From NCBI GenBank assembly GCA_964647025.1, contig CAZYFU010000010.1, positions 10,047-74,046 of the forward strand: a stretch of 64,000 bases of DNA. The letters run 5' to 3'. The stretch is from an uncultured Myxococcales bacterium. Lineage in GTDB: Bacteria > Myxococcota_A > Polyangia > Fen-1088. Shown here in pieces: positions 36,862-46,160 of this stretch. The translations under genes were made by a program, and so were the position numbers. The notes beneath the pieces are model-generated. The model ran no database searches and was not told the origin of the DNA. It saw only the letters and a list, made by a program, of their open reading frames with translations. Every line of letters begins with the position of its first letter. Positions within the stretch are counted from its first letter, which is position 1.

Positions 36862-38103
36862 TCAGTAGATGGCGACGCCGAAGGTGAAGCTCTGCGCGCC
36901 TTGCCACGCCTGGTCGGCGAGTCCGACCTTGGCCGACGTATAGTCGAAGCGCGCCGTCAAGGCCAGGCGGGTGGTGAGCGATAGCTCGAGCATGGCACCG
37001 CCGCCGAACGCGGGGCCATTGCGCGAGCCGGCCAGGTCGTGGTTGGCATACATCACGCCCGCGTGGCCGAAGCCGCCGAGATGCAGTCGCCACACGCTGA
37101 GCGGAAAGAACTGCGCCTCCAGCGACAGGTTGTGGCGCGAGAAGGAGTTGCCGTCGACGTCTTGGCCCCCCGCGGGCGACCAATTGGCCAGGATGCCGAC
37201 CATGGAGTGCGGGAAGTAGCCAAACTGGATGTCGCCGGCCACGCCGTCCGCGTTCAAGCTGGCGTGCGTCGAGTGCAGGATGCCGAGGTTCATCTTCCAC
37301 GCGAAGCCCTGTCGATTGAGCGGCGCGCGTCCGAGCCGCACCAAGCCCCAGCCTTCGTCGTCCATGACCTTGGCTTCCGTGCTGGATTCGACGTCGGCTT
37401 GCGTGAGCTGCGCCAACGGCACCTCGCGCTGTTGTCCGGCAGGGTCCTTCAAGTGGACGCTCTGCCATGGGTACATGGCCACGGTCCCGTCGTAGCGCAC
37501 GCCCTCCGTGGCGATCATTCCCACCGTCGCAGCGAGCGCGACGACGACCAGCATGACCACGAGCTCGTCGTGCCCGCTGCCGCCTCCTCCGGTCTTGCGG
37601 CCACGGTTCGCCGTGGGCGCCGGTTTCGGTGGCGAGAGCGGTCGGCTGGGCATCCCGACGCCCGGACCGCGTGGGCCGGGAACAGTGCGGCCCAGGTGCG
37701 CCACCCCCGGCAGCGGCGGGACGAGCGGCGGAACCAAAGGAGGCGGGAACGGTGCGACCATCACGCCCACGCCGACATGCGGTCCGCTCTCGACGTACGC
37801 GTCGGGCTGCGGCTCTTGTGGTGGATACCCATCCTGCGCGTACGGCTGCGCCTGCGGTGCGGGCTGGGTCGTATCGATGGCGTCGGCGCGGCGCTCGCCG
37901 AGCTGTTGCACCACGCGCACGCTCTGCCCCCGCTGTTCGGGGGGCAACGACGCCAGACGCGCGAGCTCCGACTTGGGGATCACGTACTCGTTCGAGAGGC
38001 ATCCGCCGCACGCGTAGGACAGGAACGCAGCGAACGCAATCAAGGCGGTCGTGGTGTGGCGGACACTGTTCGTCGAGTGTCGAGAAGGAGCTGGCATGCG
38101 CAT
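36862..38103 (-). CDS. hypothetical exported protein with Pro-rich N-region and beta-barrel-like C-terminal domain (possible outer-membrane protein)
   Basis: ATG at 38103 (MRMPAPS...TALIAFAAFLSYACGGC). Pro/Gln-rich stretch. C-terminal alternating hydrophobic pattern ending ...QSFTFGVAIY (aromatic terminal residue, typical of OMP barrels). The upstream 89 codons of the ORF are Arg-rich junk. Confidence 0.5.
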   Translation of the reverse strand: MRMPAPSRHSTNSVRHTTTALIAFAAFLSYACGGCLSNEYVIPKSELARLASLPPEQRGQSVRVVQQLGERRADAIDTTQPAPQAQPYAQDGYPPQEPQPDAYVESGPHVGVGVMVAPFPPPLVPPLVPPLPGVAHLGRTVPGPRGPGVGMPSRPLSPPKPAPTANRGRKTGGGGSGHDELVVMLVVVALAATVGMIATEGVRYDGTVAMYPWQSVHLKDPAGQQREVPLAQLTQADVESSTEAKVMDDEGWGLVRLGRAPLNRQGFAWKMNLGILHSTHASLNADGVAGDIQFGYFPHSMVGILANWSPAGGQDVDGNSFSRHNLSLEAQFFPLSVWRLHLGGFGHAGVMYANHDLAGSRNGPAFGGGAMLELSLTTRLALTARFDYTSAKVGLADQAWQGAQSFTFGVAIY

Positions 38104-38368
38104 GGCGCCCGACGGTAGCAGCTTTTGTGCCGGCCGTGCAGCGGGGACTCGCCCGCTGTTTCTGCCGACTTGTGCGCGTCGGCGCAGCGGTGGGCCGTCG
38201 GACTGTGGTGTGAAAGCCACGGTGGACCGTCGCGCATCGGCTCGCCTGCGTGCAGTTCTCCTCGACGGTGAGTCCGCGGTTGGCAGCTGGTTTCGTTCCG
38301 CCCGATTCTTGCGGCTCTGGCTGAACGAACGTATAGTGAGGCTGAGACGAATTCCATCGGAGGGAACC

Positions 38369-38677
38369 ATGGGAATCGATGTTCGCGTAGAGACAGAGTC
38401 AGGCGAAGTTCAGGACGAGGTTCTCGACGACGGGAACCTGACCGAGAAGCTGCTCCCGGATCGCGAGGACCCGACTTCACCCTGTTTGCGCTTCGTCGAC
38501 CCGTTCGGGGACACCTTGTTCAACCAGATTCAAATCCCGCTGGTCGTCACGGAGCTCGAGAAGAAGCTGCGCGGATCGGCGCGGGCCGAGGTGAAAGCGC
38601 ATTGCGAGGCGATTCTCAAGGCAGTGAAGGCCGCAGACGGCGAAGAGCACACGTACGTCCGTTTCTCGGGCGAATAG
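38369..38677 (+). CDS. small hypothetical protein (102 aa)
   Basis: Perfect RBS ggaggga 6 nt upstream of the ATG and strong GC3 bias. Acidic protein, no known motif. Confidence 0.5.
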   Translation: MGIDVRVETESGEVQDEVLDDGNLTEKLLPDREDPTSPCLRFVDPFGDTLFNQIQIPLVVTELEKKLRGSARAEVKAHCEAILKAVKAADGEEHTYVRFSGE

Positions 38678-38705
38678 CGCGTCTGCCGAGCAAAGCTCCG
38701 CGAGC

Positions 38706-39956
38706 ATGAGAACTGGCACCGCGGATTTGCCCCTGCATGGCGGGCGCGTGCCCATGTGGTTGGCCGCACGGATGGCGCGCCTTGGCCGGGTCATGGTCGA
38801 GGCACTCGTCATCGAGTACGGACGCGACGAGGTCTTGCGCCGACTGGCCGACCCCTTCTGGTTTCAGTCGCTCGGCTGCGTGATGGGGATGGACTGGCAT
38901 TCGTCGGGTATCACGACCAGCGTTCTCGGGGCGCTCAAGCGCGGGTTGGCCCCGGTGGAAGGCGAGCTCGGCATCCACGTTTGCGGCGGTCGAGGCCGAC
39001 ACTCCAGGCGCACCCCCGATGAGCTGCGCGCCCTGGGCGACAGGCTGTCCGTCGACGCCGCCGGCCTGGTGCGTGCGAGCCGCTTGGTCGCGAAGGTCGA
39101 CAGCGCGGCGGTGCAGGATGGCTTCGACCTGTACCTTCACGGCTTCATCGTCGCCGACGACGGGAAATGGGTCGTCGTCCAGCAGGGCATGAACCCGGCA
39201 AGACGCCAGGCGCGCCGCTACCACTGGCTCTGGGATCGCGCGGGCTCGTTCGTGGACCAGCCGCACTCGGCCATCGAGGGCGAGCCGGCACCCACGCCTA
39301 TCGTCAACCTCACGGATCGTGCGGCCGCGGCGTCGCGTCAACAAACCGTGGCGCTCGCGGTGTCGGATCCGGCCAAGGTCGTGGCTCAGGTCGAACGCGT
39401 GCTGGAAATGCCGAGCCACCATGACGTGCGCGCCGATAACCTCGATCTGCGCAGACTGGGGGCCGCGTTGCACGTGGCGGCGAAGCAGGGCCCGGCGACT
39501 TTTCCCGAGCTGCTCCTCACCCCCAACATCGGCCAGCGCACGCTGTTCGCGCTGGCGCTGGTGGCGGAGGTCTTGCACGGTGCGCCGTGTCGGTTTTCCG
39601 ACCCTGCGCGGTTCTCCTTTGCCCACGGAGGTAAGGACGGGCACCCGTTCCCGGTGCCGCTCAAGGTCTACGACGAGACGCTCGGAGCCCTTCGACGCGC
39701 CGTGGATGGCGCCAAGCTGGGTCAGACGGACAAGCTGGCTGCCCTACGAAAGCTGGACGAACAGTGCCGGTTGGCCGAACGGGCGGCCAGTGGGAGGGCG
39801 TTGCCCACCAGCCCGTCGATTGCGCTTGCGGCGGTGATCGCGCACGAACGGCGCGTCTCGCCGCAGTTGGGCGGCCGTACCTGCTCGGGCGGAGCAACAC
39901 GACCGCGTCAGTTGTCGCTCAGGTTTGGTCCCGGAGCGCCTTTACGAGAATCTTGA
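38706..39956 (+). CDS. DUF763-like conserved hypothetical protein
   Basis: N-terminus ...ADLPLHGGRVPMWLAARMARLG...DPFWFQSLGCVMGMDWHSSGITTSVLGALK recalls the DUF763 family. Follows the small protein after a 28-nt gap. Its 3' end overlaps the convergent flgM-like gene by 38 nt. Confidence 0.55.
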   Translation: MRTGTADLPLHGGRVPMWLAARMARLGRVMVEALVIEYGRDEVLRRLADPFWFQSLGCVMGMDWHSSGITTSVLGALKRGLAPVEGELGIHVCGGRGRHSRRTPDELRALGDRLSVDAAGLVRASRLVAKVDSAAVQDGFDLYLHGFIVADDGKWVVVQQGMNPARRQARRYHWLWDRAGSFVDQPHSAIEGEPAPTPIVNLTDRAAAASRQQTVALAVSDPAKVVAQVERVLEMPSHHDVRADNLDLRRLGAALHVAAKQGPATFPELLLTPNIGQRTLFALALVAEVLHGAPCRFSDPARFSFAHGGKDGHPFPVPLKVYDETLGALRRAVDGAKLGQTDKLAALRKLDEQCRLAERAASGRALPTSPSIALAAVIAHERRVSPQLGGRTCSGGATRPRQLSLRFGPGAPLRES

Positions 39957-40194
39957 GCGCGAGGCGTTGTGGGTGGACCTTGTACGTTCCCTCCGCGACC
40001 TGACGACGAAGCTCTTCCACTCGGATGCGCCGCGAAACCGACTCTGCGCTGGGCGTGGACGGCGCACTGAGTGGACCCCTGCGCACTTGTAGGTTGGTTG
40101 GTGCTGCCATGTACTCGAACATCGGCCCCTGTGAGAAATCCTTAAGAGGATCCGAGAGGTTTTTTCGACTTTTTCGAAAGTCGAACGATGGCAA
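39919..40194 (-). CDS. anti-sigma-28 factor FlgM-like protein
   Basis: 91 aa. The C-terminal RVEELRRQVAEGTYKVHPQRLALKILVKAL matches the FlgM sigma-binding helix pattern ([IV]..G.YKVD...IA..[IL]L). Located directly downstream of a FliA-type sigma factor gene. Confidence 0.5.
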   Translation of the reverse strand: MPSFDFRKSRKNLSDPLKDFSQGPMFEYMAAPTNLQVRRGPLSAPSTPSAESVSRRIRVEELRRQVAEGTYKVHPQRLALKILVKALRDQT

Positions 40195-40254
40195 GGAGTT
40201 AGGGACCCAACCCAGGCCCCCGCGCTCGGTGGAGACGGCTTTGGCGCCTTCGGA

Positions 40255-41058
40255 CTACGCTGCGACGGCGTCTTCGATGTCCGACAGCGACTCGCGCAGG
40301 CGGCGCGTGGCTTCGCCGTGGATCTGACAGACGCGGGATTCGGTCACGCCGAGGATCTCGCCGATCTCCTTCAGGTTCATGTTCTCGCAGTAGTAGAGCG
40401 AGAGCACCTGCTGCATCTTCTCGGGCAGATCGTCGATGCCGGAGACCAAGTGCGCGAGCGCTTCCCGGTGCGCGGTGAGCTCGAAGGGATCGGGAGAGTT
40501 GTTGTCGCTCGTGCGTTCGAGGAAATCTGGACCCGCGTCGTCGATACCGACCACCGACGATCCGGAGAGCTTCTGCTGGCGGGTATACAGCTCGTCTACC
40601 CTGAGGCCGAGGGTCTCTGCGAGCTCGCCCTGGTCGGGCGTACGACCGAGTTGGGACTCGAGCTTGCGCGTCGCTTCACGCAGCTCGTTCGAGAGGCGCC
40701 GCATATCGCGAGAAAGCGTGTCGCGGGCGCGCAGGTCGTCGAGCATGGCGCCGCGGATGCGGAACTCGGCGAAGGCTTCGAAGCGATCGACGCGCTTGGG
40801 GTCGAAGCGCTCGGCAGCCTCCATGAGTCCGATCACGCCTGCCGAGACCAGATCGTCGATCTCGACGTGGGCTGGAAGGCGACGGGCGAGCCGACGCGCC
40901 ACCTTCTCGATGTACGGGAAGAACTTGGCCGCATACTCACGGCGTCGCGCTGCGAGCGCCTTCGGGGAAAGCTTGCGTTCACTGGTACGCTTCTTGGCCG
41001 CCTTGTGCGCTGCCGGCCGTCGTTGCTTACTTACCCGAGCTCGCTTCGCTTTTGGCAT
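40255..41058 (-). CDS. RNA polymerase sigma factor, FliA/WhiG (group 3, sigma-28-like) family
   Basis: Region 2 DDLVSAGVIGLMEAAERFDPKRVDRFEAFAEFRIRGAML. Region 4.2 LSLYYCENMNLKEIGEILGVTESRVCQIHGEATRRLRE, nearly identical in pattern to E. coli FliA. Lys/Arg-rich N-terminal extension of about 30 aa. Confidence 0.8.
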   Translation of the reverse strand: MPKAKRARVSKQRRPAAHKAAKKRTSERKLSPKALAARRREYAAKFFPYIEKVARRLARRLPAHVEIDDLVSAGVIGLMEAAERFDPKRVDRFEAFAEFRIRGAMLDDLRARDTLSRDMRRLSNELREATRKLESQLGRTPDQGELAETLGLRVDELYTRQQKLSGSSVVGIDDAGPDFLERTSDNNSPDPFELTAHREALAHLVSGIDDLPEKMQQVLSLYYCENMNLKEIGEILGVTESRVCQIHGEATRRLRESLSDIEDAVAA

Positions 41059-41070
41059 GCCGACCCGGTG

Positions 41071-41087
41071 TGCAGCCGCCGTGCCAG
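41071..41087 (-). promoter_or_regulatory. candidate sigma-54 (-24/-12) promoter element upstream of the FliA-type sigma factor gene
   Basis: The minus-strand sequence CTGGCACGGCGGCTGCA matches TGGCACG-N4-TTGCA with exact GG-N10-GC spacing (one mismatch, C for T at -14). It lies in the 186-nt intergenic region, 13 nt upstream of the annotated ATG. Confidence 0.3.
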
Positions 41088-41244
41088 GAAAGTGGACTCG
41101 CTAACCTGGCCAATATCCTGGCAGTTGTGACCCGGCCTCGACGGGATCGTCATCCGAATGACGTCATGAGGGGGATCGAACCGTCAAGCCACTGACGACT
41201 GCGAGGGAAAACGTGGCGCCAATGACGATCGGATCGGCAGGTGA

Positions 41245-42570
41245 TCAGGCCACGGTTCGGCGGCGCAGCTTCTCAACAAGGGTGGTGCGGTTCATGCCCA
41301 GCAATTCCGCGGCGCGGTTCTTGTTGCCGCCGGTTCGTTCCAACGCTTGACCGATCAAGCGGTCTTCGAGCTGGGTGAGTAGGAGTCGGAGATCCACGCC
41401 GTGAGGTGGTAGGTCTACGATTGCCGGACCAAGCGCCTTCACATCGGTGCGCAGACTGGCGGGCAGGTCGTACACAGTGACTCCGCGATCCTTGGCGGTG
41501 GTCACGAGATTTGCGACGACGTTTTCCAGTTGTCGTACGTTGCCGGGCCACGGGAACTCGCCGAGCCTGACCAGCACGTCGGGTGGCAAGGGCGGCGTCT
41601 CCCGACCGCGGAAGGTGTTGGCGGCGCGGCGGAAGTGCTCGACCAGGATCGGGATGTCCTCGAGGCGCTCGCGCAGCGGCGGGATCTCGATGGGAATGAT
41701 GTTGAGGCGGTAGTAGAGATCCTCGATGAACGAGCCTTCGCGTACCGCCTGTTCGAGGTTTCGGGTGGTGGCTGCGATGATGCGCACGTCCGCTCGTCTG
41801 CGACTCGCAGCGTCCCGGACCAGTCGCAGAAGGCCCACTTGGAGCTCGCGCGCGAGATTCGCGATCTCGTCGATGAAGAGGGTGCCGCGGAGTGCCTCCC
41901 CAAGCTTGCCTTGGCCGGTTGTCGGAGCCTCTTTGCCCGAGACATTGGGGGCGCCGAACATGTCTGTCGTGGTGAGCTTGTTCTCGCCGTTTGCCAGCCG
42001 TATGGCCACGAACGGTCCGTTGCGACGCGTACCGCACGCGTGGATCAAACGGGCAACGACCTCTTTGCCGGTGCCGTCTTCGCCGCGGATGAGGACGCTG
42101 GCGTCGGAGTCCGCGACCTGGTCGACCCGTTCGAGCACGACGTGCATGGCGGGATGCTCGCCAACCAAGGTCGCGCCGCTGGTCCGCAGCGGAGCAACGC
42201 CGCGTCCGCGCTCTGCCAAGGCACGCTCGATGACATCTCCGCAGACCTCGTCGTGGAAGGACTGCGGGATGAAGTCGACCGCGCCCATGCGAAACGCCGA
42301 GACGATCTCGCGCACCGTGCCCAGGGCCGCGCGGACCACGACCGGGATGGCCATCTTTCGCGCGTGAGCCGAGGCGACCACGTTGCGGACGGTCTCGCTT
42401 GGCAGTCCCAGCGAGATCACGCAAAGCTCGAACGTCTTCGATGAAAGGGCATCGAGCGCGCGCGTGGCGTTCTCCACGGCCAGGCATTCATAGCCGAGGG
42501 ACGCCACCACACGCGCGAGTGCTTCTCGCGCAGCTTTGTCGTCGTCGACGAGGAGAATCCGTATCTGCAT
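41245..42570 (-). CDS. NtrC-family response regulator (receiver + AAA+ sigma-54-interaction-type domain + Fis-type HTH) with degenerate GAFTGA loop
   Basis: ATG at 42570 with a gggagg RBS. Receiver domain MQIRILLVDDDKAAREALARV. AAA+ domain with Walker A GEDGTGKE and Walker B GTLFIDEI. In the ESELFGHEKGAFTGA position it reads TTDMFGAPNVSGKEAPTTG, so the GAFTGA motif is absent. C-terminal HTH LIGQALERTGGNKNRAAELLGMNRTTLVEKLRR. Confidence 0.8.
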   Translation of the reverse strand: MQIRILLVDDDKAAREALARVVASLGYECLAVENATRALDALSSKTFELCVISLGLPSETVRNVVASAHARKMAIPVVVRAALGTVREIVSAFRMGAVDFIPQSFHDEVCGDVIERALAERGRGVAPLRTSGATLVGEHPAMHVVLERVDQVADSDASVLIRGEDGTGKEVVARLIHACGTRRNGPFVAIRLANGENKLTTTDMFGAPNVSGKEAPTTGQGKLGEALRGTLFIDEIANLARELQVGLLRLVRDAASRRRADVRIIAATTRNLEQAVREGSFIEDLYYRLNIIPIEIPPLRERLEDIPILVEHFRRAANTFRGRETPPLPPDVLVRLGEFPWPGNVRQLENVVANLVTTAKDRGVTVYDLPASLRTDVKALGPAIVDLPPHGVDLRLLLTQLEDRLIGQALERTGGNKNRAAELLGMNRTTLVEKLRRRTVA

Positions 42571-42918
42571 CCTCCCGCACGTAATCGGCGGAACGATCCG
42601 CACCCTGAAGCTCTTGGTCGGGCTTCTTTCGACGGTCGCGGACGATCGCGATCGGATTCTCTTCGGTCCTTTTCGTTGTCGGCCTGCAGGTGTTTTGCGC
42701 ATGCCTTGTCCGCGATTGGATCGGCCGTCCGGGACGACGAACAGGGCCCGCATTGTACCCCTACTCCAGCGTTTCCGCTCCGCTTTCACGGCGTTCCAAG
42801 AATGCGGTGGGCCGCGATGCCGGGCGCAAAGCAGGATGACTGCCGTCGGAGAACCGACTCGGGAAACCGACGAGCCCGTTACCCGTCAATCACCCTCCAA
42901 TCGCCCGCCAATCGCTCC

Positions 42919-43305
42919 TCAAGGCGAAAACAGCACGCCAGCCAGAATGACGCTCAGCGAGCCGGCGGCGAGACAGAGGATTACGGTGAGCGCGAAGTAG
43001 AGGACGGCGGTCGTGTACGCGCCGGATTGCAGGTAGCGGACGACATCGTGGTTGAAGCTGGAGTAGGTGGTGAGGCCCCCCATGAAGCCCGTGGTCAGCG
43101 TGAGCCTCAGCGCGGGAGAGAAGGCGGTGGTCCGCAGCGAGACCTGCATGACCAAGCCGATGAGGAAGCACCCGACCACGTTCACCAGCAACGTGCCGTA
43201 GGGGATGGCTCTGCCGAGACGCTCATCCGCCCAAAGGCCGACCAAATACCGAACGCCGGTTCCGATAGCACCGGCCAGGCAAATCCAAAACAGCTTGACC
43301 ATCAT
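42919..43305 (-). CDS. crcB: fluoride ion channel CrcB/Fluc
   Basis: MMVKLFWICLAGAIGTGVRYLVG...GTLLVNVVGCFLIG...TGFMGGLTTYSSF, the classic CrcB motifs. About 128 aa from the internal ATG. Confidence 0.8.
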   Translation of the reverse strand: MMVKLFWICLAGAIGTGVRYLVGLWADERLGRAIPYGTLLVNVVGCFLIGLVMQVSLRTTAFSPALRLTLTTGFMGGLTTYSSFNHDVVRYLQSGAYTTAVLYFALTVILCLAAGSLSVILAGVLFSP

Positions 43306-43429
43306 CAAAGGTCGGAAAAATGAAGGACGCAACCCTAACACGGCACCTCCCCGCCGACCACAGGGTTTGGTTTTGTGCCAACCGGAGGTTGACGTTAGGC
43401 TTTTCACAACTCAAAGTGCAGACAGGCTG

Positions 43430-45300
<1,871 letters not shown>

Positions 45301-45304
<4 letters not shown>

Positions 45305-45861
45305 ACTTCGCAACCGCGGCACCTTCGCTGCTCGAGAAGATAGCCTTCTTCGTCCTGGCCGCCGGGGTCTTGGGCGGTGCCCTGGTCACCATCACGCGCA
45401 AGAGCGCAGTCGGGGCGCTGATCGCGCTCATCGCCACGTTCTGCGCGTCGGCTGGGCTCTACGCCACGCTGTCAGCGCACTTCCTGGCCGTCCTGCAGGT
45501 GCTGGTCTACGCGGGCGCCATCATGGTGCTGTTCATCTTCGCGGTCATGATAGTCAGCCGCGACGAGACTCAGCCGATCGCGCTGCGCGGGCTGTTCCTG
45601 CGTGCTGCCGCGGTCCTCGCCATCGGCTACCTCTTCTACAAGACCGCCTGGATCGTCGTGCGTGAGCGCGGGAGCGACGTGCTGGCCGCGACCGCGCCTC
45701 CGCCCATTCCCGACTTCGGCAACGTGGCCGCGGTGGGGCGCCTGCTGTTCAGCGACTTCCTGTTCCCCTTCGAGGCGATTTCCTTGCTTCTACTGGCCGC
45801 GGTGGTGGGCGGCGTGGTCTTGGCCAGGCCACCCACGCGAAACGACGGAGGCGCCGTCTGA
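45301..45861 (+). CDS. nuoJ: NADH-quinone oxidoreductase subunit J
   Basis: GTG start overlaps the nuoF stop (GTGA). Five-TM ND6 family pattern (…LQVLVYAGAIMVLFIFAVM…). Confidence 0.8.
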
Positions 45862-46160
45862 TGCCAGGTCATTTCTACATTCTGGTCTCGCTAGCCCTGT
45901 TCTTCATCGGCACCACCGGCGTGCTCATGCGGCGGAACGCCTTGTTCGTGCTGATGAGCGTGGAGTTGCAGCTCGCCGCAGGTAGCCTGGCGCTGCTCGC
46001 GTTCTCGCGAGGCCTGGGCGATCAGCGTGGGCACGTGGTCGCGTTCTTCATCATGGCCCTGGCGGCGGCCGAGGCGGCGATCGGCCTCGCCATCGTGGTG
46101 TCCATCTACCGCGTGAACAAGAAGATCGATCTGGCCACCATCGACGAGCTCCGGAACTGA
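45861..46160 (+). CDS. nuoK: NADH-quinone oxidoreductase subunit K
   Basis: 99 aa; …VLMRRNALFVLMSVELQLAA…AAEAAIGLAIVVSIYR, a typical ND4L. Its ATG overlaps the nuoJ stop (ATGA). Confidence 0.9.
   Translation: MPGHFYILVSLALFFIGTTGVLMRRNALFVLMSVELQLAAGSLALLAFSRGLGDQRGHVVAFFIMALAAAEAAIGLAIVVSIYRVNKKIDLATIDELRN

Follow-up and report, generated by a model that had tools for sequence, protein, structure and literature searches.

A NtrC-family protein without sigma-54-contacting loops upstream of a conserved sigma-54-type fliA promoter in Polyangia

In the enhancer-binding proteins (EBPs), the GAFTGA motif is indispensable for contact with sigma-54 according to mutational work, and there is both mutational and structural evidence that its F and T residues and the pore loops L1 and L2 are necessary (PMC3105312; 10.1101/2023.06.06.543975). 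EBP homologues that lack the motif are known, and all studied cases have moved to sigma-70 promoters: the NtrC proteins of Rhodobacter capsulatus and Caulobacter crescentus and VpsR of Vibrio cholerae, in which L1 is deleted or replaced, retain DNA binding and, partly, ATP binding (10.1101/2023.06.06.543975; PMC6158489). Here we describe a GAFTGA-less protein of the NtrC family, hereafter the regulator, encoded upstream of a fliA and a flgM-like gene in a 64-kb stretch of DNA from an uncultured Myxococcales bacterium (assembly GCA_964647025.1, contig CAZYFU010000010.1, positions 10,047 to 74,046; the whole stretch is called the window below). Unlike the GAFTGA-less NtrC proteins and VpsR, it is linked to a -24/-12 promoter that is conserved and has an enhancer of the classical two-site type. 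What is new in this locus is that a large clade of regulators lost the sigma-54-contacting parts stepwise while selection maintained the enhancer geometry and the sigma-54 promoter. It poses the question of which protein opens the fliA promoter, and of what a sigma-54-blind protein does at a sigma-54 enhancer.

Other described proteins share some of these features. NtrX of Brucella abortus (Protein Data Bank (PDB) IDs 5m7n, 5m7o and 5m7p) has the same order of receiver, AAA+ and Fis-type helix-turn-helix (HTH) domains and an L1 without GAFTGA, but it keeps the acceptor Asp and an N64-type Asn and has not been reported at a sigma-54 promoter; moreover, the regulator locus has no neighbouring ntrY kinase gene. 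The NtrC proteins of R. capsulatus and C. crescentus depend on Asp phosphorylation, whereas the receiver of the regulator is predicted to be non-phosphorylatable. Compared with NtrX, NtrC and VpsR together, the regulator is set apart by an apparently dead receiver, by the loss of L2 and of switch residues, and by an intact sigma-54 enhancer-promoter unit. FleQ and FlrA resemble it in a receiver-like N-terminal domain without acceptor Asp and in their place above fliA, and the AAA+ domain of the regulator matches FleQ structures well; however, the GAFTGA motif is present in FleQ and FlrA, which are sigma-54 activators. HrpR and HrpS of Pseudomonas syringae are two EBPs that form one ring at the sigma-54 promoter of an alternative sigma factor gene, hrpL (PMC3105312). 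In contrast to the regulator, both have functional GAFTGA loops, both are required, and their genes lie side by side. PexR (PMC12754779) is a GAFTGA-bearing EBP and proved irrelevant. Literature searches returned no paper on the family of the regulator, and likewise none on FliA/FlgM in Myxococcota.

Loss of the sigma-54-contacting parts

The translated minus-strand gene (Table 1) begins with MQIRILLVDDD, and its product matched the Pfam families Response_reg, Sigma54_activat, AAA_lid_14 and HTH_8, with a marginal match to the FleQ domain (23.9 bits, cut-off 22). An identical protein (P0001) is encoded on further contigs. Every named NCBIfam EBP equivalog scored below its cut-off, among them NtrC (TIGR01818, 298.2 bits vs 558.6) and NtrX (NF051870, 257.9 vs 600), so that the regulator belongs to no named equivalog. 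Its best PDB sequence match was Brucella NtrX 5m7n (E 1e-60) and its best fold match by Foldseek was 5m7p, the nearest structures by Foldseek and HMMER being NtrX, NtrC1, FleQ and ZraR. Residues were assigned from an alignment of 109 full-length relatives with PspF, and from a curated alignment of 30 sequences (A1), which was also used for an AlphaFold model. The numbering of the PspF sequence used agrees with the known K42, N64, F85 and E108. The model predicted a confident EBP fold, with a mean predicted local distance difference test (pLDDT) of 81 and about 90 across residues 1-120 of the receiver.

At the position of GAFTGA, the regulator carries VSGKEA (amino acids 210-215, nucleotides 41926-41943), a replacement of equal length. 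In ungapped HMMER alignments, its segment FGAPNVSGKEAPTTGQG stands opposite FGYEKGAFTGAVSSKEG of A. aeolicus NtrC (4l4u) and FGHEKGAFTGAITSRAG of Pseudomonas aeruginosa FleQ (8p53). A GAFTGA-like hexapeptide (G[AS][FYW][TS]G[AS]) was found in no reading frame across the entire window, the gene included; thus, neither a frameshift nor a sequencing error could restore the motif. Residues 210-218 were disordered in the AlphaFold model, with pLDDT values below 50. The second pore loop, in pre-sensor I, is affected as well: it lacks 7 residues relative to NtrX, NtrC, FleQ and the GAFTGA-bearing orthologue P0110 (14 residues vs 21), and the model predicted a helix there instead of a hairpin. In addition, the glutamate-switch Asn (N64 in PspF) is replaced by R191, and the equivalent of PspF R162 is I282. 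Coupling to sigma-54 is therefore lost in multiple, specific ways: GAFTGA, L2, N64 to R and R162 to I. With both pore loops and the switch residues gone, the regulator would be unable to remodel sigma-54, and the prediction that it cannot engage sigma-54 is well supported.

The initial annotation of this gene had already pointed out the replaced motif, at equal length, and had proposed that the protein probably cannot activate sigma-54; the alignments bear out the former, and the latter is strengthened by the changes in L2, N64 and R162, by the disorder modelled for L1 and by the hypervariability of this loop described below. The same annotation had called the remaining domains intact. This holds for Walker A (K169 in GEDGTGKE), Walker B (D234 and E235 in LFIDEI) and the Fis-type HTH, and sensor I (T268) and the sensor II Arg (R346, in the lid domain and past the AAA+ domain coordinates) are also kept. 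Of the R-finger region, the equivalent of PspF R168 is present (R288), the loss at I282 standing against the claim. The receiver, in turn, is not intact: the alignment columns of the acceptor Asp, the Thr and the Lys, which hold D, T and K in GAFTGA-bearing orthologues, contain S53, A81 and Q103. As the acceptor site is lost, the regulator is not expected to be phosphorylated. No histidine kinase gene was present in the flanks of the locus, which contain crcB, the nuo operon, fliA, flgM and a DUF763 gene.

The protein database yielded over 100 relatives with identities of 50-100%, chiefly from soil, peat and fen metagenomes; those that carry names belong to metagenome-assembled genomes (MAGs) of Polyangia or Myxococcales. 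A search of contigs with an A1 profile yielded one true orthologue (L007) among the matches listed, one of the two peptide patterns used in it being a pattern that matches EBPs in general. More than 100 orthologues in the clade of the regulator confirm the absence of GAFTGA, as do six identical copies, with the loop itself hypervariable rather than conserved. L1 is never GAFTGA in this clade, which comprises about 125 relatives from Polyangia metagenomes; it ranges from about 14 to 37 residues, and has no conserved position at all. It is the least conserved segment, with a pairwise identity of 0.20, vs 0.81 in GAFTGA-bearing relatives, while the receiver, AAA+ core, lid and HTH reach 0.62-0.94 (0.62 for the receiver), matching the GAFTGA-bearing group. 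Selection thus appears to have been relaxed on L1 only. The HTH, of the sequence type GNKNRAAELLGMNRTTLVEKLRR, is invariant across the 109 aligned relatives and across A1.

A sister group, about 52% identical to the regulator and comprising P0110 and many metagenome loci, is fully canonical in having the receiver residues D54, T82 and K104, N64, GAFTGA, a full L2 and R162. These orthologues (among them P0110, L006, L007, L113, L118 and L123) have the same gene order, an identical HTH and, around fliA, the same palindromes, enhancer-promoter distances, leaderless sigma-54-type fliA promoter and a sigma-28-type promoter in front of the regulator gene; they have the appearance of normal sigma-54 activators under the control of phosphorylation. 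In a bootstrapped neighbour-joining tree, from which L1, L2 and the diagnostic columns were excluded and which was rooted with a paralogous family, the GAFTGA-less sequences were monophyletic in 97 of 100 replicates, and the two more degenerate subclades grouped together in all 100. An earlier neighbour-joining tree, based on BLOSUM62 and not bootstrapped, had suggested two independent losses of GAFTGA; the bootstrapped tree favours one. The two trees disagree on the placement of the least degenerate subclade, and a single origin of the GAFTGA-less clade, which we favour, is not fully settled. The clade descends from orthologues at this locus that were canonical and bore GAFTGA.

The subclades can be ordered in three steps of decay. 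In the first, L1 is reduced to 14 residues. The second comprises N64 to R or Q, R162 to L or I, a shortened L2, and a Walker B changed from DE to DD, ND or AD. The third, in the subclade of the regulator, adds loss of the acceptor Asp and an L1 that is hypervariable at 15-35 residues. Such a stepwise decay would be expected if remodelling, and in part hydrolysis, became dispensable while ATP binding stayed. In the middle subclade, some members (P0074, P0088, P0089 and P0093) have ND or AD in Walker B and keep the Walker A Lys, which suggests that ATP hydrolysis is dispensable in them. Taken together, the pattern reads as a genuine and ancient loss of sigma-54 remodelling in proteins whose DNA binding, ATP binding and receiver fold appear to be still under selection. 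The alternative that the regulator is a decaying relic without function would account for a progressive loss of motifs, but it is effectively refuted by the conservation pattern, with an undisrupted frame in over 100 orthologues whose identity is as low as 50%, an invariant HTH, all domains except L1 as conserved as in GAFTGA-bearing relatives, and a conserved promoter of its own.

Enhancer and promoters of the fliA circuit

The regulator gene and fliA are separated by 186 nt. This spacer contains the only two perfect matches to CGTCA-N6-TGACG in the window, centred about 96 and about 130 bp upstream of the fliA start, and the only match in the window to TGGCAY-N6-TGCW, a -24/-12 element of sigma-54 type next to the fliA ATG (Table 1). 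Conservation was followed across 86 metagenome loci gathered by an exact scan for the HTH-encoding DNA. In 42 of 43 unique spacers, from GAFTGA-bearing and GAFTGA-less loci alike, one palindrome was centred 70.5-72.5 bp and the other 104.5-106.5 bp from the -24 GG, on its upstream side. A -24/-12 element followed by an ATG after 12-13 nt occurred in 30 of 32 GAFTGA-less and 11 of 13 GAFTGA-bearing loci, and in none of 8 loci of other EBP families. A twelfth GAFTGA-bearing locus (L108, 5329-9063) has two genes inserted between the regulator gene and fliA, one with DUF1585/1588/1592/1595 and one with DUF1552, and the palindromes and the sigma-54-type promoter remain beside fliA. The spacing of the two palindromes, 34 bp, resembles that of the two-site NtrC enhancer at glnAp2. 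A third, degenerate palindrome further upstream matched at 9-10 of 10 positions at the equivalent place in three other loci (L003, L100 and L153). We infer that the HTH of the regulator binds these CGTCA-N6-TGACG palindromes.

Between enhancer and promoter, conservation profiles revealed a further box with the structure TGCCAGGAAGATGGCC-N4-TTAGC, containing a GCCA...TGGC inverted repeat and seen only in GAFTGA-less loci; it may be the site of a bending protein or of a second regulator. A scan of positions 39800-43500 did not detect any sigma-70-like promoter, and the spacer between the regulator gene and fliA was also free of terminators; a Rfam search of 38000-46000 gave no match. The fliA ATG is not preceded by a Shine-Dalgarno sequence and would fall at about +3 or +4, counting the C of the GC doublet as -12. 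In about 60 loci with orthologous spacers, nearly all have the ATG 12-13 nt after the -12 TGC[AT], and none of these spacers has a Shine-Dalgarno sequence. Most likely, then, fliA is transcribed as a leaderless or near-leaderless mRNA from the sigma-54-type promoter, GAFTGA-less lineages included. The conserved -24/-12 element, the fixed enhancer distances and the lack of a Shine-Dalgarno sequence, a sigma-70-like promoter or a terminator together indicate that this element is still a working promoter. These promoter assignments, like those that follow, are based on consensus matches and conservation, and use of the fliA promoter by sigma-54 is to be understood as a prediction from them. The sigma-54-like element (TGGCACGGCGGCTGCA) and the sigma/anti-sigma pair that the initial annotation had noticed beside the regulator gene are in this sense both real.

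The fliA product is a FliA/WhiG-family sigma-28 factor with Pfam matches to sigma regions 2, 3 and 4. The next gene encodes a FlgM-like anti-sigma-28 factor, which exceeded the Pfam cut-off (Table 1) and scored 27.2 bits with TIGR03824, vs a cut-off of 40.75. The order regulator, fliA, flgM is kept in all subclades and in the GAFTGA-bearing group. Upstream of flgM lies a sigma-28-type promoter, TAAG-N14-GCCGAT, of which the window has a single copy (0.1 expected) and which recurs at the orthologous site in about 20 loci, 9-10 nt before the ATG of a 62-65-residue FlgM. This conserved spacing identifies the flgM gene as 39919-40110, and its mRNA, too, appears to be leaderless. A longer flgM reading frame, from a TTG at 40194, is probably unused, since orthologous gene calls have 62-66 residues and the promoter-to-ATG spacing is conserved.

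A second sigma-28-type promoter precedes the regulator gene. It was flagged weakly in the consensus scan and is present as (C)TTCAGG-N14-CCGCCGAT in essentially all GAFTGA-less loci; GAFTGA-bearing loci have the form CTCAAGG-N14-(G/A)CCGAT at the same distance from the ATG. This promoter, 13 nt upstream, fixes the start of the regulator at 42570. A longer N terminus from a GTG at 42789, as in orthologues annotated with 492-502 residues (P0014, P0015 and P0043), was rejected, because the apparent conservation of 'VPPIT' in it is that of the -10 element CCGCCGAT. Directly past the crcB stop, and upstream of this promoter region, three tandem 11-bp repeats (GCGATTGGCGG, GCGATTGGAGG and GTGATTGACGG; 42882-42914, minus strand) were also observed.

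Since flgM and the regulator gene both have conserved sigma-28-type promoters, FliA is evidently active, and both promoters are presumably used by sigma-28. The circuit would thus be one in which sigma-28 transcribes the regulator gene and flgM, and the regulator sites together with sigma-54 control fliA; in the GAFTGA-bearing ancestor it would be a positive loop with FlgM as the brake. It is a compact arrangement of three promoters, apparently with leaderless or near-leaderless mRNAs at all of them; the transcription starts predicted from them are no more than about 3 nt from 41058 for fliA and from 40110 for flgM, and about 4 nt ahead of 42570 for the regulator gene.

Possible roles of the regulator at the fliA enhancer

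If the fliA promoter is still of sigma-54 type and the regulator cannot remodel sigma-54, a different, GAFTGA-bearing ATPase must open it, and a second activator would have to exist. As a tentative explanation, we propose that the regulator is a sigma-54-blind occupant of the enhancer that damps or gates the activation of fliA by such an EBP. It would bind ATP and oligomerise, and its invariant HTH would place it on two, or three, palindromes upstream of fliA. Activation would then be damped either through competition for the enhancer sites or through poisoning of mixed rings. In the HrpR/HrpS hetero-hexamer, activation is abolished when the GAFTGA of one or the other partner carries a T-to-A change (PMC3105312); as both partners need the motif, inhibition would be expected from a GAFTGA-less subunit within a mixed ring, and likewise from a GAFTGA-less dimer occupying an enhancer site. 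Since the regulator gene has a sigma-28-type promoter, FliA would switch on a brake on itself in addition to FlgM. If this were true, the regulator would be a natural anti-activator or poison subunit, which would be new in the biology of sigma-54, as would remodelling without an L1 loop.

One lead to a second activator was found. A large, canonical, GAFTGA-bearing response-regulator family in Polyangia and Myxococcales MAGs (L095, L097, L103, L135 and L142; proteins P0140-P0259) is 41% identical to the regulator overall and identical in 32 of 33 HTH residues, so that EBPs able to read the same sites should exist in Polyangia. Genes for a tetratricopeptide repeat protein, phosphoadenosine phosphosulfate (PAPS) reductase/CysN and Uma2 are its conserved neighbours, and its own loci contain neither local palindromes nor a sigma-54 promoter. 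The samples with this family are mostly from plant rhizospheres, where GAFTGA-bearing loci of the regulator occur too. A 714-kb contig that had been followed as a lead to co-occurrence turned out to be unrelated.

Several points weigh against the proposed damping role. No other EBP gene or GAFTGA reading frame was found in the window or in the flanks of 45 GAFTGA-less loci. The family with the near-identical HTH was not found in one genome with a GAFTGA-less gene, shared ERZ accessions being two-strain metagenome assemblies, and in the exact-HTH scan it came only from samples other than those with GAFTGA-less genes. The presence of rpoN is presumed. A negative sign of regulation would follow from the analogy with HrpR/HrpS, its sole basis. 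Finally, the unchanged enhancer geometry and feedback wiring would be explained most simply if the regulator still activated fliA as its ancestor did.

As an alternative, the regulator might be a positive partner, a scaffold that tethers a GAFTGA-bearing EBP, which may or may not have a DNA-binding domain, at the fliA enhancer in a mixed ring. The regulator would contribute DNA binding and arginine fingers in trans, the partner would contribute the pore loops, and the ancestral positive loop between FliA and the EBP would be kept, consistent with an enhancer geometry and loop wiring that are identical in GAFTGA-bearing and GAFTGA-less loci. Retention of Walker A, R288 and sensor II alongside a variable Walker B is also what dead subunits of hetero-AAA+ rings show, and hetero-oligomeric EBP pairs are known, namely HrpR/HrpS (PMC3105312) and RedR1/RedR2 (PMC10084136). 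We nevertheless consider a scaffold unlikely, as the GAFTGA motifs of both HrpR and HrpS are strictly needed (PMC3105312), and as no conserved partner gene stands next to the locus, nor any in the flanks of the 45 GAFTGA-less loci.

A regulator that works independently of sigma-54, after the manner of Rhodobacter and Caulobacter NtrC, NtrX, VpsR or TyrR, would act on promoters of the sigma-70 or another type, whether before fliA or at other loci, with ATP binding controlling its oligomerisation. This is the mode of all characterised GAFTGA-less EBPs (10.1101/2023.06.06.543975; PMC6158489), and NtrX is the nearest solved structure by both sequence and fold. The score with the NtrX equivalog, however, is far from its cut-off (258 bits vs 600), and all the strong binding sites that were seen keep a constant distance to the conserved -24/-12 element. 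Neither a sigma-70-like promoter in 39800-43500 nor a fliA leader or Shine-Dalgarno sequence beyond the sigma-54 start was there to serve such a mode, which we judge improbable for this locus. The initial annotation had listed a repressor or anti-activator, a sigma-70-type activator and a heteromer partner as possible roles: the first fits the locus best, the second fits poorly, and a productive heteromer is disfavoured.

Little credence can be given to the view that the regulator is still an ATP-dependent activator of fliA, which opens sigma-54 promoters without GAFTGA and L2 through another surface or an adaptor. In its favour are the conservation of the 34-bp spacing, of the distance to -24 within 1 bp, of the -24/-12 element and of the sigma-28 feedback promoters, together with purifying selection on the ATP-binding residues and the receiver fold; R191, moreover, is a conserved replacement, unlike random decay. 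These observations have to be set against the published necessity of the GAFTGA F and T residues and of L1 and L2 (PMC3105312; 10.1101/2023.06.06.543975), an L1 of about 14 to 37 residues without a conserved one, and the ND or AD Walker B of some clade members. If this case were true, an AAA+ ring would open sigma-54 without the canonical pore loops. That the lineage instead has a sigma-54 free of ATP-driven remodelling, with a bypass-type region I and EBPs as mere recruiters, is a logical possibility raised by the paradox itself and seems far-fetched, given that GAFTGA-bearing sister lineages retain canonical EBPs at the locus and Polyangia MAGs encode canonical EBP families.

Whichever way the regulator acts, its GAFTGA-bearing and GAFTGA-less orthologues on identical DNA sites amount to a natural loop-swap experiment.

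Feature coordinates and gene neighbourhood

Table 1. Coordinates, strand and supporting evidence of the features of the regulator-fliA-flgM locus in the window.
Feature	Position	Strand	Evidence and remarks
GAFTGA-less NtrC-family protein gene (regulator), 441 aa	41245..42570	-	Open reading frame and translation, Pfam, conserved upstream sigma-28-type promoter
Putative pseudo-receiver, aa 1-120	42211..42570	-	Response_reg (PF00072) 44.4 bits, cut-off 30.2
AAA+ sigma-54-interaction-type domain, aa 135-300	41671..42168	-	PF00158 145 bits, cut-off 20.2, model 1-168 fully covered
Replaced L1 loop, aa 207-221, APNVSGKEAPTTGQG	41908..41952	-	Gap-free alignments to 4l4u and 8p53
Shortened pre-sensor I (L2), aa 252-260, RDAASRRRA	41791..41817	-	Alignment gaps; ERVGG hairpin missing
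Fis-type HTH, aa 398-437	41260..41379	-	HTH_8 52.5 bits; sequence GNKNRAAELLGMNRTTLVEKLRRR
Sigma-28-type promoter of regulator gene (predicted), TCAGG-N14-CCGCCGAT	42584..42608	-	13 nt, then ATG
Third, degenerate palindrome, CGTCATTGGCGCCACG	41212..41227	.	30 bp upstream of next site; conservation profile of the clade's intergenic region
Distal enhancer palindrome (predicted), CGTCA-N6-TGACG	41182..41197	.	Centre ~104.5 bp upstream of -24 GG
Proximal enhancer palindrome (predicted), CGTCA-N6-TGACG	41148..41163	.	Centre ~70.5 bp upstream of -24 GG, 34 bp from distal
Conserved box, TGCCAGGATATTGGCCAGGTTAGC	41100..41123	-	Between enhancer and promoter; conservation profiles
Sigma-54-type -24/-12 promoter (predicted), TGGCACGGCGGCTGCA	41071..41086	-	TGGCAC-N5-CTGCA; 12 nt before fliA ATG
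fliA, FliA/WhiG-family sigma-28 factor, 267 aa	40255..41058	-	PRK06986 231.4 bits (cut-off 201), TIGR02479 228.8 (cut-off 189.6)
Sigma-28-type promoter (predicted), TAAG-N14-GCCGAT	40121..40144	-	10 nt before flgM ATG
flgM-like anti-sigma-28 factor, 63 aa	39919..40110	-	Pfam FlgM (PF04316) 32.7 bits, cut-off 25

No flagellar genes were found within the window. The FliA/FlgM pair lies in housekeeping surroundings that include genes for Lon, DnaJ, ClpB, seryl-tRNA synthetase, PBP1A, nuo subunits and UvrC. The absence of flagellar genes nearby points to a non-flagellar role of FliA/FlgM in Polyangia. Myxococcota have been reported to possess a non-flagellar type III secretion system with FliO homologues (PMC12248157); that such a system is what FlgM and FliA sense is pure speculation.

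Beside flgM, the less degenerate GAFTGA-less and the GAFTGA-bearing loci (L004, L006, L178-L187) have a convergent gene for a GAF-GGDEF diguanylate cyclase, and the subclade of the regulator has the DUF763 gene (38706-39956, plus strand) at that position. The cyclase gene hints at a link to cyclic di-GMP (c-di-GMP) in the ancestral circuit. A comparison with c-di-GMP binding by FleQ was uninformative: by eye, two of five contact residues are absent from the regulator (R144 is A133 and N186 is L175), and the others are also present in GAFTGA-bearing relatives.

On the other side of the regulator gene, a fused NuoE-NuoF gene (2Fe-2S_thioredx plus Complex1_51K, about 625 aa; 43205-45304, plus strand) heads a partial nuo cluster with J, K, L, M and N. 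This nuo neighbourhood beside the regulator gene is conserved in other GAFTGA-less loci (L001, L003, L004, L173 and L174).

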